A DNA stretch of 64,000 nt from Pseudomonadota bacterium (GTDB taxonomy: Bacteria; Pseudomonadota; Gammaproteobacteria; UBA9214). A model generated the notes under the pieces. That model saw only the letters and a list, made by a program, of their open reading frames with translations, searched no databases and was not told where the DNA came from. The position numbers and the translations under genes were made by a program. The stretch is taken from positions 65,257 through 129,256 of the forward strand of contig JBDLJX010000001.1 in assembly GCA_039714155.1 (NCBI GenBank), written 5' to 3'. Below, piece by piece: positions 6,272 to 11,573 of this stretch (positions are counted from its first letter, which is position 1; each line of letters opens with the position of its first letter).

Positions 6272-7675
6272 TCAAGTTTTGGGGGCATCCTGCAGCAATT
6301 CATTGACCTGCACCAGGTCCGTGTCCTCCAGAATGCCGGCCGCCTGTTTCAGCTTCAGCGTATTCAACAGGTAGTCGTAGCGGGAACGGGCATGGTCACG
6401 CCGCACACGCAGCAACTCACGCTGCGAATCCAGCACATCGACAATGGTGCGCGTGCCGACCTCGAAACCGGCCTCGGAAGCCTCCAGCGCCTTCTCGCTC
6501 GAGACCCGTGCCTGCCTCAACGCCTTGACCTTGCTGAGTTCGGCCTGCACACCGCGGAAACTGTCGCGTGACTGGCGCTCTACTTCGCGGCGTATCCGCA
6601 CCTTCTCATCCTGTATCTGTTCATAGCGGAAACGCGACTCCCGGGTCTGTGACGATACCAGCCCGCCCTGGTAGACCGGCAGCACCACTTCCAGACCAAT
6701 GGCGCTGTCATTGCGCTTCAAGGGCACCAGCCCTCCGAAGTTGTTGTTGCGATGGGTGTAATCGGCTGTCAGGTCAACCGTCGGGTAATGGCCGGACCGC
6801 TTGATCTCGATCTCCTGACGCGCCGCCTCGGTAGCCGCCCGTGCCGCCAGGATCAGCGGGTTCTGTTCCAGCGCAGTGTCGACCCATTCCTGCTTGACTG
6901 CCGGCTCAGGCCCGACAAGTGGAATTTCCGGGCGCAGGATTTCCATTGTCCCCGGCGATTCACCCGTCAGTTCACGCAGTGCCTCGCGGGCGTCATCCAG
7001 CAGTTTCCCGGCATTGATCTCGTCACTGACGGCCGTGTCATAGCGCGCCTGGGCCTCATACACATCGGTGATTGCGGCCAGTCCAACCTCAAATCGTTGT
7101 TGCGCCTGCTCCAGCGTGCGCGCAATCGCCGCTTTGTCCGCCTTGACGAATTCAAGATTATCCATTGAACCGAGCACGACGAAATAACGGGTCACCACCC
7201 GGATAACCAGTTCCTGGTAGGCGGACTCCAGTTCGGCATCTGCCTGTGCCACCCGGCTGTCGGCCTGCTCCAGTGCAATAAAACGGTCACGATGATAGAC
7301 CGACTGCCGCAGGCTCGCGGAATAAACCTTGTTGGTGTAGTAGGTGTTTTCCTTTTCGCCGGGAGCCGGCTTGCGATCATGAAAACGGTTGCGGGAAACA
7401 TCGGCCCGCAGATTGATATCAGGCAACAATACGGCGAGGCTTTGCGGCACCACTTCAAGCGCGGCATCATGAGTTGCCATCGCTGCCTGGTACTGCGGGT
7501 CGGAATCCAGTGCCAGACCAAATATCGAGACCAGGTCATCGGCCCGGGCAGACACCGAAATCAGCAGTACACCCGTCAACAGCACGGACAATAACTGCCG
7601 CAGACAGATATCCGTTGTGGCTGACAGCAGAGCTGGACGTGAAACACGGCCTGTGTGGGAAGAGCGAACAATCAT
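6272..7675 (-). CDS. TolC-family outer membrane efflux/secretion channel protein
   Basis: 467 aa with a signal peptide. It has the TolC-like two-repeat architecture, including ..QRFEVGLAAITDVYEAQARYDTA.. (compare E. coli TolC QRFNVGLVAITDVQNARAQYD). It lies 242 nt downstream of the rhombosortase gene on the same strand. Confidence 0.8.
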   Translation of the reverse strand: MIVRSSHTGRVSRPALLSATTDICLRQLLSVLLTGVLLISVSARADDLVSIFGLALDSDPQYQAAMATHDAALEVVPQSLAVLLPDINLRADVSRNRFHDRKPAPGEKENTYYTNKVYSASLRQSVYHRDRFIALEQADSRVAQADAELESAYQELVIRVVTRYFVVLGSMDNLEFVKADKAAIARTLEQAQQRFEVGLAAITDVYEAQARYDTAVSDEINAGKLLDDAREALRELTGESPGTMEILRPEIPLVGPEPAVKQEWVDTALEQNPLILAARAATEAARQEIEIKRSGHYPTVDLTADYTHRNNNFGGLVPLKRNDSAIGLEVVLPVYQGGLVSSQTRESRFRYEQIQDEKVRIRREVERQSRDSFRGVQAELSKVKALRQARVSSEKALEASEAGFEVGTRTIVDVLDSQRELLRVRRDHARSRYDYLLNTLKLKQAAGILEDTDLVQVNELLQDAPKT

Positions 7676-7917
7676 GCCCTGCGTTCCGATAGTGATGTGA
7701 GTTTACTGGTAACAATGCCCGCATCGGGCAGCTGTAATTTGACGCTGAAGAATAATGTGACGCATGCTCAAAGTACAGCTGATACAGCAATTCAGCATGT
7801 AAATTCCGAGATCTCCTAGCGACACCGGGCACCATTCAAGAGTGATGTGGTATCATAGCCCGGCAACAGCCCCGGAAGAACAGTTCATCATTCACGACCG
7901 GCACTCATCTGATTCAG

Positions 7918-8592
7918 TCAGGGAAGCCCCCGAGTCTTTATTTCGACCGTCCCACCGGTCAGGTTGTTCCACCTCTCGCACAGTGGTAGTCGCCTGTTCC
8001 TGCCACTGAAACCCTTCTGACTGTTATCTTGCCGGTTGCATAAGCTGTTTCCGGAGATCCAGATCCCCCACCCCAATACCAGACCACACAGAAATCCCGC
8101 GGCATGTACCGTCGGCACGCTTGGCCAGGCAGTCTGGGTCAGGAGTGCCTGACCGGCATTGATCTCAACAATAATCTTCACGGCCGCACCCACACCGGTG
8201 AGCAGAATCAGTGGATGCCGAAGATCGCGCCACAGCTGCATCAGGCCCACGATCAGCAGGCTGTTCAGGATGCCCGACAACCCACAGTAGTAACGCAGTG
8301 CGGGATCACCCCACCACAGCCAGGCATCGACGCCGACGCTGCCGATCAACAGGGCCAATGGCAGGCGCCACTGCAGCCGTGCCTCGAACAATGCCCCGAG
8401 CAACAGTAGTGCGGTAATGTCCCAGATTGCATGCGCCAGATCGCTGTGCACCCAATGCCCGGTGATCAGCCGCCATAGCTCGCCCCGGGAAATTGCAGCG
8501 CGGTCGAACACCCAGGCCTCAGGTGCTGCACCAAGGCACAGGAAAGCAGACAGCGCCACCGTGCCAAGTAAAAGAGTACGCCATGGCAGCAT
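7918..8592 (-). CDS. Rhomboid-family intramembrane serine protease with rhombosortase features
   Basis: Contains WRLITGHWVH (TM2), a GLSG catalytic-serine motif and a HAAGF catalytic-histidine motif across about six predicted TMs. The start was chosen at the internal ATG at 8592, which has a GGAG 11 nt upstream. The ORF track extends to 8706 and would overlap the upstream gene by 73 nt. It is adjacent to a GlyGly-CTERM protein gene. Confidence 0.75.
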   Translation of the reverse strand: MLPWRTLLLGTVALSAFLCLGAAPEAWVFDRAAISRGELWRLITGHWVHSDLAHAIWDITALLLLGALFEARLQWRLPLALLIGSVGVDAWLWWGDPALRYYCGLSGILNSLLIVGLMQLWRDLRHPLILLTGVGAAVKIIVEINAGQALLTQTAWPSVPTVHAAGFLCGLVLGWGIWISGNSLCNRQDNSQKGFSGRNRRLPLCERWNNLTGGTVEIKTRGLP

Positions 8593-8633
8593 GATGCCGC
8601 CATGGTGTTCTCCAGGTTTAGAAGATGCGTCCA

Positions 8634-10724: not shown

Positions 10725-10740
10725 GTCTGACTCCTTACAA

Positions 10741-10923
10741 ATGAACGATGTTCAATTAATGTCTGTGAATAGGCCCGGGAAGCGGTGATGTCGCCAGGCG
10801 GGCCTTAAATAAACACTGTTCAATATATTTTCCAAGAAAACCCACGCACTGAAATGGGTGGGTGACTTGCGTTATGAACGGTGTTCAATTAAACTGTAGC
10901 ACAGGGCTGAACAGTGTTCAATA
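10741..10923. promoter_or_regulatory. Array of four palindromic operator-like sites in a divergent promoter region
   Basis: Three sites read TGAAC-N3-GTTCAAT(T/A): 10743-10757 TGAACGATGTTCAAT, 10876-10890 TGAACGGTGTTCAAT and 10909-10923 TGAACAGTGTTCAAT. A degenerate fourth site is at about 10812-10826 (AAACACTGTTCAAT). All lie between the minus-strand VWA gene start (10724) and the plus-strand tetR start (10971). Confidence 0.6.
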
Positions 10924-10970
10924 ATATTTCCTAACCCCGCCCTGTCGGTAGTCAATCAGAGGTCCAGACG

Positions 10971-11573
10971 ATGGCACGACGCAGCGACCACAGCCGTGAA
11001 GAACTCCGGAAGATGGCCCTGGCGGCTGCCGAACACATTGTGGTGGAACAAGGCTATGAAGGCCTGAGTGCACGCAAGGTGGCGGCTGCCATCGGCTATA
11101 CCGTCGGGACCCTGTACCTGGTGTTCGAGAACCTCGATGACCTCATCCTGCACATCAACGCCCGTACGCTCGATCGCCTGCATGCACGCATGACCGAGTC
11201 ACAGGCACACTGTACTGATGCCAGTGATTGCCTGTTGCAACTGGGCCAGGTCTATATTCGCTTTGCCGATGCCGATCCACACCGCTGGGCAATGGTATTC
11301 GAACATCGCTTCTCCGGAGATCAGGCTGTGCCTGCGTGGTACCAGGAAAAGATTACGCGGATGTTCGCGCTGGTCGAGGAAGGCCTTGAACCACTCGCCG
11401 GACATCGCACACGAGATGAGATAACACAAGCATCACGGGCACTGTGGGGCGGTGTGCATGGTATCTGTATTCTGGCACTGGCCGGCAGCCTGGGCGTCGC
11501 AGGTGTTGATTCTGTACAGGATCTTACCCAGTCATTGATCAGCAATTACCTCAAGGGCTTCACCGGCAACTGA
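10971..11573 (+). CDS. TetR/AcrR-family transcriptional regulator
   Basis: 200 aa with an N-terminal TetR HTH (LAAAEHIVVEQGYEGLSARKVAAAIGYTVGTLYLVFENLDDL) and a helical C-terminal ligand domain. Confidence 0.85.
   Translation: MARRSDHSREELRKMALAAAEHIVVEQGYEGLSARKVAAAIGYTVGTLYLVFENLDDLILHINARTLDRLHARMTESQAHCTDASDCLLQLGQVYIRFADADPHRWAMVFEHRFSGDQAVPAWYQEKITRMFALVEEGLEPLAGHRTRDEITQASRALWGGVHGICILALAGSLGVAGVDSVQDLTQSLISNYLKGFTGN

Follow-up and report, generated by a model that had tools for sequence, protein, structure and literature searches.

A TetR-linked rhombosortase cassette with an ITIH-like VIT/VWA substrate in Gammaproteobacteria

Introduction

Which of the genes that stand side by side at a candidate protein-sorting locus belong together as a unit? 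We address this question for a stretch of 64,000 nucleotides (nt) from a Pseudomonadota bacterium of the gammaproteobacterial lineage UBA9214 (assembly GCA_039714155.1, contig JBDLJX010000001.1, positions 65,257 to 129,256), here called the window. The locus encodes a secreted protein with VIT and VWA domains and a GlyGly-CTERM-type sorting tail, a rhomboid-family protease, a TolC-family outer-membrane channel, and a divergently transcribed TetR-family regulator. An initial annotation, made from the DNA alone, read the VWA gene, the rhomboid gene and tolC as an operon forming a sorting and secretion module with its own regulator. The four genes, and the four palindromic sites between the regulator and the VWA gene, are present as it described them (list of open reading frames (ORFs), motif scan). 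We consider it very likely, however, that the conserved unit is a 3.5-kb cassette of tetR, the VIT/VWA gene and the rhombosortase gene rrtA, operated by TetR and devoted to GlyGly-CTERM/rhombosortase sorting, in which TolC plays no part.

Rhombosortase and the GlyGly-CTERM signal were defined by Haft and Varghese in 2011, who also described dedicated pairs in which a single GlyGly-CTERM target is encoded beside its rhombosortase (PMC3237569). In Neptuniibacter caesariensis (Oceanospirillum sp. MED92), a vWA protein is the single target; in Syntrophobacter fumaroxidans MPOB, it is a protein annotated as "vault protein inter-alpha-trypsin" (PMC3237569, supplementary table). The same paper shows the VIT/VWA family with GlyGly-CTERM, PEP-CTERM or LPXTG tails, the LPXTG form being accompanied by a dedicated Gram-negative sortase (PMC3237569, Figure 3C); TetR and TolC are not mentioned in it. 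The initial annotation had suggested that VIT-VWA proteins of this type carry LPXTG signals in other marine proteobacteria and that the locus would then be a case of sorting-signal swapping. The suggestion agrees both with the homology of the window protein to TIGR03788 and with the tail variants of the 2011 paper, and the swapping is real for the family, though already published there (PMC3237569).

Results

Conservation of the cassette

We compared the window with the loci of VWA-protein homologues (numbered with the prefix L); about 12 close relatives were among the matches listed, and most of the 80 loci encode distant VWA proteins without sorting tails. The DNA of the nearest relative, L085/L086, is 86% identical to that of the window, and this similarity is confined to positions 8025-11570, ending at both ends of the cassette: at the tetR stop codon (11570) on one side and at a non-conserved 3' tail of rrtA (8025) on the other. 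In every neighbourhood of a VWA homologue with 72-88% identity, the VWA gene is accompanied by the rhomboid gene and by tetR in divergent orientation, and the genes that flank this trio are different in each. The same trio is present in L094, whose VWA protein is 53% identical. Counting the window, the cassette is found in eight different flanking contexts (the window, L001, L002, L004, L085, L087, L088 and L094). A rhomboid gene lies directly downstream of the VWA gene in L001-L004, L006-L008, L011-L013, L016, L085-L089 and L094, and distant loci with this arrangement come from Desulfocapsaceae, a second Thiodiazotropha lineage, Verrucomicrobiales, Victivallis and Kiritimatiellae.

No direct or inverted repeats that would mark a mobile element were found around the cassette, and no mobility genes were seen beside it across the window and the contexts of the relatives. 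It appears that uncultured Gammaproteobacteria related to one another have the cassette relocated as a compact piece of 3.5 kb. The named relatives include Candidatus Thiodiazotropha, symbionts of lucinid clams. Two Candidatus Thiodiazotropha metagenome-assembled genomes (MAGs; L007 and L008) carry a more distant VIT/VWA-rhombosortase pair (56-57% identity) without tetR, and the tetR-linked type of cassette is found in a further MAG of Thiodiazotropha (L002).

The rhombosortase and its start codon

The rhomboid is, by the curated hidden Markov model (HMM), a rhombosortase; it is not a generic GlpG, which the initial annotation had named as the outcome that would speak against its identification. 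The rrtA product scores 112.7 bits on TIGR03902 (curated cutoff 84) over model positions 4-152 of 154 and matches PF01694; no GlpG-type model is listed among its profile matches. The hallmarks pointed out earlier, WRLITGHWVH, GLSG, HAAGF and about six transmembrane (TM) segments, are all present: the three motifs are invariant in four rrtA orthologues, and hydropathy gives six hydrophobic segments. In a weak match to the GlpG of Haemophilus influenzae (E-value 0.63), the motifs align with its WR, its GLSG with the catalytic Ser, and its catalytic His. The conserved domain ends near 8070, and the 3' tail of the gene (7918-8025) is not conserved, the closest relative included.

The distance of 42 nt between the VWA gene and rrtA that had been given earlier relied on an ATG at 8592, and this has to be revised. 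The equivalent of this ATG is ACG, TTG or GCG in the three closest relatives at the junction (L085, L002 and L087), and conservation of the protein starts about 14 residues before the Met (M39) that it encodes. Further upstream, a GTG at 8634, preceded by GAGGAG, overlaps the TAG stop codon of the VWA gene (8636-8634) by 1 nt. In the alignment, all seven orthologous junctions have a GTG or ATG that overlaps the VWA stop codon, with TG invariant: the window and L002 read TAGTG, L085 reads TAATG, and L087, L088, L001 and L004 read GTGA. Because protein conservation extends upstream of the unconserved ATG and the overlap is invariant, GTG 8634 is most likely the start of rrtA. The conservation of this stop/start overlap in seven junctions also suggests that the VWA gene and rrtA are probably translationally coupled.

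The VIT/VWA protein and its sorting tail

The description of the substrate as a 696-aa secreted VIT and VWA protein agrees with our analysis, which finds PF08487, the VWA domains and a metal ion-dependent adhesion site (MIDAS; Table 1). Among sequences of the PDB the protein matches ITIH4 (1.4e-23) and ITIH1 (7.4e-20), as well as the VIT domain of PARP4. The MIDAS residues D324, S326, S328 and T393 are invariant among 46 relatives, and D419 is conserved in at least 90% of them and invariant in an alignment of 15 sequences. Since the MIDAS residues are invariant, the ectodomain may have a metal-dependent role in binding or adhesion. The N-terminus is consistent with a Sec signal.

The tail of the protein consists of SGGG, the hydrophobic stretch LDAWTLLLLLPLVWL and the basic end QRRQPRVRS, with Cys absent. 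The published curation rules for GlyGly-CTERM call for a Gly motif free of Cys, a TM stretch, and basic residues ahead of the last residue (PMC3237569), and the tail has all of these: the Cys-free Gly motif, the TM stretch and the basic end. SG[GS]GALDxW[TS]LLLLLPLVWL followed by basic residues is retained in 119 of 120 homologues with 71-100% identity, and nearly all full-length representatives of 50%-identity clusters that score above about 300 bits end in a motif rich in Gly, a helix and a group of Arg/Lys residues. The tail is also found in genome loci of Gammaproteobacteria, Desulfobacterota (Desulfocapsaceae), Verrucomicrobiota (Verrucomicrobiales) and Lentisphaerota, Victivallis and Kiritimatiellae included. 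No other ORF of the window has a credible tail of the GlyGly-CTERM kind. As judged from these comparisons, the tail did not arise by chance.

Two other sorting assignments were considered for this protein. The model TIGR03788 ("marine proteobacterial sortase target") scores 213.7 bits over residues 49-634, below its cutoff of 551.65; the tail has no LPXTG and the neighbouring genes are rrtA and tetR, and we reject the protein as a TIGR03788 sortase target. MYXO-CTERM is ruled out for the tail as well (13.6 bits against a cutoff of 20, no Cys). No sortase-family Pfam domain occurs in the annotated ORFs of the window, and no exosortase gene was found in its 64 kb. Relatives of the VIT/VWA protein also touch models for XrtN-sorted and MSEP-CTERM VIT proteins.

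The divergent regulator and its predicted operators

A 246-nt intergenic region separates tetR from the divergent VWA-rrtA pair. The initial annotation had pointed to the divergent TetR gene and its palindromic operator-like sites, and both turn out to be a conserved partner of the pair in orthologous loci. A divergent tetR orthologue is present in L001-L004, L085-L089, L010, L014 and L094. The pattern GAACRNTGTTCAAT has four matches in the whole window (10743, 10811, 10876 and 10909), where 0.10 are expected, and none of 100 shuffles gave four. With up to two mismatches allowed, each orthologous locus examined has two to four copies of TGAACNNTGTTCA in the spacer between tetR and the VWA gene, and this holds for the loci of Woeseiaceae and Granulosicoccaceae too; outside the spacer there are zero to five matches per locus over the remaining 10-18 kb, and five in the 64-kb window. 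In total, ten orthologous spacers conserve the operator-like sites. Where the VWA proteins are 72-88% identical (seven loci), two sites keep their distance from the start of tetR, at about +50 and +83 (O3 and O4 in the window), and the L094 spacer has three ATTGAAC-N4-GTTCA sites despite only 53% identity of its VWA protein. A consensus scan of the VWA strand gives a single sigma-70-like match (10948-10921, minus strand), whose -10 hexamer lies under O4. The conservation of the sites across orthologous spacers supports a dedicated TetR repressor. An Rfam search of 5500-12000 returned the signal recognition particle (SRP) RNA alone, and nothing in the untranslated regions of the cassette.

TolC and the remainder of the window

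The tolC gene lies on the same strand as rrtA, and the gap of 242 nt stated in the initial annotation holds when measured from the longest ORF; from the start of the 437-aa protein that NCBI calls for an identical TolC (GTG 7585) it is 332 nt. The longest ORF has a 25-residue extension ahead of the signal peptide, orthologues are 432-456 aa long, and the start is uncertain.

The placement of TolC in the operon does not survive the comparison of loci. No TolC was found within the 5-8 kb flanks of the 87 VIT/VWA loci screened (phmmer and Pfam tables), phmmer with the TolC of the window gave no match in the first 84 fetched loci, and TolC is not listed in the gene tables of L085-L089 and L094, a set that includes the relative with the 88%-identical VWA protein. 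Of the eight contexts, the window alone has tolC adjoining the cassette. In L091/L092, an 83%-identical tolC is followed, as in the window, by the SRP-RNA spacer, dnaX, ybaB, recR, a HIT protein gene, an ORF and rsgA. On its other side lie a divergent intergenic region of 595 nt and a gene for a phosphonate-binding protein on the opposite strand, and there is no cassette. In blastn, window positions 954-7548 are collinear with L091/L092, and homology stops within the 5' end of tolC. As judged by synteny, tolC is part of a separate conserved housekeeping block, tolC-ffs-dnaX-ybaB-recR, with its own upstream region, and an unrelated neighbour of the cassette. In L091/L092 the gene lies behind the divergent 595-nt region and therefore would have its own promoter there.

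Table 1. Features of the cassette and of the adjoining tolC-ffs region. Positions are those of the window.
Feature	Position	Strand	Description
Cassette	~8025-11575		three genes
rrtA, rhombosortase	7918-8634	-	238 aa from GTG 8634 (most likely start); longest ORF 7918-8706
VIT/VWA (ITIH-like) secreted protein	8634-10724	-	696 aa; ORF and Pfam
N-terminal signal-like segment MNRQTGRKSIWQGLIVLTASLFAGFTPAAG	hydrophobic residues 10-24, after basic n-region	-	hydropathy only
VIT domain	residues 45-154 (10263-10592)	-	PF08487, 1.8e-30
VWA domain	residues 320-476 (9297-9767)	-	VWA_3, VWA_2 and VWA matches
MIDAS motif DISGS	residue 324 of the VIT/VWA protein	-	sequence
GlyGly-CTERM-type sorting tail SGGGALDAWTLLLLLPLVWLTWQRRQPRVRS	8637-8729, residues 666-696	-	SGGG, hydrophobic helix 671-685, RRQPRVRS
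Operator-like palindrome O1 GAACGATGTTCAAT	10743-10756		19 nt upstream of the VWA start codon
Operator-like palindrome O2 AAACACTGTTCAAT	10811-10824		
Operator-like palindrome O3 GAACGGTGTTCAAT	10876-10889		conserved pair with O4
Operator-like palindrome O4 GAACAGTGTTCAAT	10909-10922		overlaps -10 hexamer of sigma-70-like match
tetR, TetR-family repressor	10971-11573	+	200 aa; PF00440 TetR_N 34.2 bits, PF13305 TetR_C_33 56.1 bits
tolC, TolC-family	6272-7675 (longest ORF)	-	467 aa; TIGR01844 332.9 bits (cutoff 225)
ffs, bacterial small SRP RNA	6074-6170	-	RF00169 67.8 bits (gathering 40), full length

The remainder of the window is core chromosome, with rsgA, recR, ybaB, dnaX, ffs and tolC on one side of the cassette, and ppk2, lysS, prfB, recJ, rpoS, nlpD, pcm, surE, eno, pyrG, dnaE, lpxBAD, bamA, rseP, dxr, cdsA, uppS, pyrH and tsf past it. 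The ffs gene lies between tolC and dnaX, in a spacer that is conserved in L091/L092. The prfB gene for release factor 2 (21235-22333, minus strand) has a canonical programmed +1 frameshift site, AGGGGGTATCTTTGAC, at about 22254-22270, and is represented in the mechanical ORF list by its downstream 337-aa frame only. About 100 nt of the window (2893-2993) match the inverted tolC-ffs spacer of L091/L092 (L091 7651-7822) and may be a dispersed intergenic repeat. Between the HIT-family gene and rsgA, a 347-aa ORF (1835-2878, plus strand) has no Pfam match; its counterpart in L091/L092, a 363-aa gene, has no Pfam match either, and nucleotide identity between them is about 66% over window positions 2195-2828.

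Discussion

The cassette resembles the dedicated pairs described by Haft and Varghese in that the target adjoins the rhombosortase gene and belongs to the VIT/VWA family. It differs from them in two respects: the window and the clade of uncultured Gammaproteobacteria around it add a divergent TetR gene with two to four conserved operators, and the tail of the window protein is of an atypical form (GGGALDxWxLLLLLPLVW) at the edge of TIGR03501. Adjacent dedicated pairs, single targets of the VIT/VWA family and the swapping of tails within this family have all been in print since 2011, and the conserved TetR control is the sole new detail. Together with the occurrence of the three genes as a tight unit in varied contexts, the TetR/operator control is a modest addition. 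Cupriavidus metallidurans is an example of two dedicated systems in one genome.

The model for the mechanism comes from Vibrio cholerae, where the rhombosortase RssP acts on VesB and five other GlyGly-CTERM proteins. The two systems share the protease family and the tripartite tail, and the V. cholerae work provides the sequence of events: cleavage at the Gly motif, a modification of the glycerophosphoethanolamine type, then type II secretion (PMC6219818, PMC13393428). In contrast to the cassette, the V. cholerae system is many-to-one, its genes are unlinked, its cargo consists of proteases and a nuclease, and no dedicated regulator appears in these two papers (PMC6219818, PMC13393428). The cleaved GlyGly-CTERM protein is re-anchored in V. 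cholerae, and the export route established by experiment is secretion by the type II system (T2SS; PMC6219818). Roberts et al. (2026) showed that tail and RssP lead to membrane association only, and that crossing of the outer membrane needs a separate secretion signal (PMC13393428).

Two further systems share the cargo. The marine proteobacterial sortase TIGR03784 with its LPXTG target TIGR03788 has cargo homologous over almost the whole length of the window protein (residues 49-634) and likewise places the enzyme gene beside a single target; it differs in having an LPXTG signal and a cysteine transpeptidase, whereas the window protein falls well short of the target model, as described above. 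Eukaryotic ITIH1 and ITIH4, and the VIT domain of PARP4, are similar to the window protein (E-values of 1e-20 to 1e-23), with VIT, VWA (MIDAS) and C-terminal regions in common. However, the window protein is bacterial and has a membrane-sorting tail, and the linkage chemistry of ITIH1/ITIH4 with bikunin and chondroitin is not implied.

We infer the following course of events, from TetR repression to cleavage site, lipid reattachment, export route and adhesin role, from sequence and by analogy. TetR would bind the ATTGAAC-N4-GTTCA palindromes, two to four in number, of the 246-nt spacer, and most likely would repress both its own gene and the VWA-rrtA bicistron until a ligand releases it. Derepression would then yield the ITIH-like VIT/VWA protein with its Sec signal peptide and GlyGly-CTERM tail, and the rhombosortase would be made along with it through the overlapping stop and start codons TAGTG. 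By analogy with VesB and RssP, Sec would export the substrate, and its C-terminal helix would anchor it in the inner membrane. The rhombosortase would cleave it within SGGG, and the Gly that thereby becomes C-terminal would be joined to a lipid-like moiety that contains glycerophosphoethanolamine. The processed protein is expected to stay associated with the membrane, and to reach the surface only if a T2SS exists in the organism and the protein has a signal for it; at the surface, the VWA domain with its MIDAS could serve as a metal-dependent module for binding or adhesion.

A bolder version would make the cassette a self-contained, ligand-gated surface-display unit; no dedicated rhombosortase system before it would have had a conserved repressor and operators of its own. 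We put this forward tentatively and regard it as more doubtful than probable. If it were true, a small molecule from the environment or from a host would switch the ITIH-like adhesin's display on the cell.

Several observations weigh against the sorting cassette as we read it. The tail is tripartite, as the initial annotation stated. Scored in isolation (36 aa), it reaches 15.1 bits on TIGR03501 against a cutoff of 15.5, a marginal result, and 13.6 bits over 61 aa; TIGR03501 is not listed for the full-length protein in a search of NCBIfam at E<=0.01, and in full-length scans it is matched by only 5 of 46 relatives at E<=1. Because the score is just under the cutoff and few relatives are matched, the tail is, on these profile scores, an atypical GlyGly-CTERM subtype. 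Three relatives, from Cellvibrio (L009), Woeseiaceae (L010) and Granulosicoccaceae (L014), carry the tail and have no rhombosortase adjoining the VWA gene. Type II secretion genes are absent from the 64-kb window, and the literature searched yields no experiment on any VIT/VWA target of a rhombosortase.

The marginal tail score is also what could be said for a different function of the protease. The helix may be a plain inner-membrane anchor, from which the rhomboid would free the ectodomain to the periplasm or by which it would take the protein for degradation, as shedding or quality control, with neither lipid reattachment nor surface display. Haft and Varghese discuss release as one possibility (PMC3237569), and the membrane association that tail and RssP achieve by themselves (Roberts et al. 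2026, PMC13393428) would fit it too. We nevertheless find this improbable: the protease is a bona fide member of TIGR03902, the cleaved protein is re-anchored in the sole system studied (PMC6219818), and SG[GS]GA is strictly conserved right before the helix, as expected of a transpeptidation-type signal. It is harder still to regard the adjacency as fortuitous, with the rhomboid a general membrane protease of many substrates and TetR the regulator of another target. The relatives without an adjoining rhomboid would be explained in this way; however, neighbouring genes with overlapping stop and start codons are kept across several phyla, the operators are conserved in the tetR-VWA spacer only, and the trio is intact in all eight contexts, so that we give this explanation hardly any credence.

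Our assessment of the operon as first proposed, with VWA, rhombosortase and TolC genes in a single transcript and TolC as the outer-membrane exit for the sorted protein, is only slightly less negative: it is very unlikely. No gene separates rrtA from tolC on their shared strand, and a consensus scan of the gap (7676-7917) found no terminator or promoter on the minus strand, so that read-through from rrtA into tolC is possible. On the other side stand the absence of TolC from the 87 loci and from L094, the end of homology to L085/L086 at 8025, before tolC is reached, the L091/L092 tolC in a block of its own, and the width of the gap (242-332 nt). TolC serves type I secretion and efflux, whose substrates bypass the periplasm, and no genes for ABC or membrane fusion protein (MFP) partners lie near tolC or the cassette in the window. 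The VIT/VWA protein, in contrast, has a Sec signal, and GlyGly-CTERM cargo goes via the T2SS (PMC6219818). A TolC-dependent module for type I secretion or efflux that includes the cassette was likewise rejected, on the grounds that conserved linkage and ABC/MFP partners are missing and tolC has a separate synteny block.

The three-gene cassette, for its part, leaves the current understanding of rhombosortases unchanged. For annotation, rrtA is better started at the GTG in overlap with the stop codon of the VWA gene, and tolC should not be labelled as part of the rhombosortase system. The cassette is a compact example of a dedicated rhombosortase system, and pairs of one enzyme and one substrate are handy for the study of GlyGly-CTERM sorting beyond Vibrio. 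Through the conserved TetR and its predicted operators, the system could be induced and its controlling signal sought.

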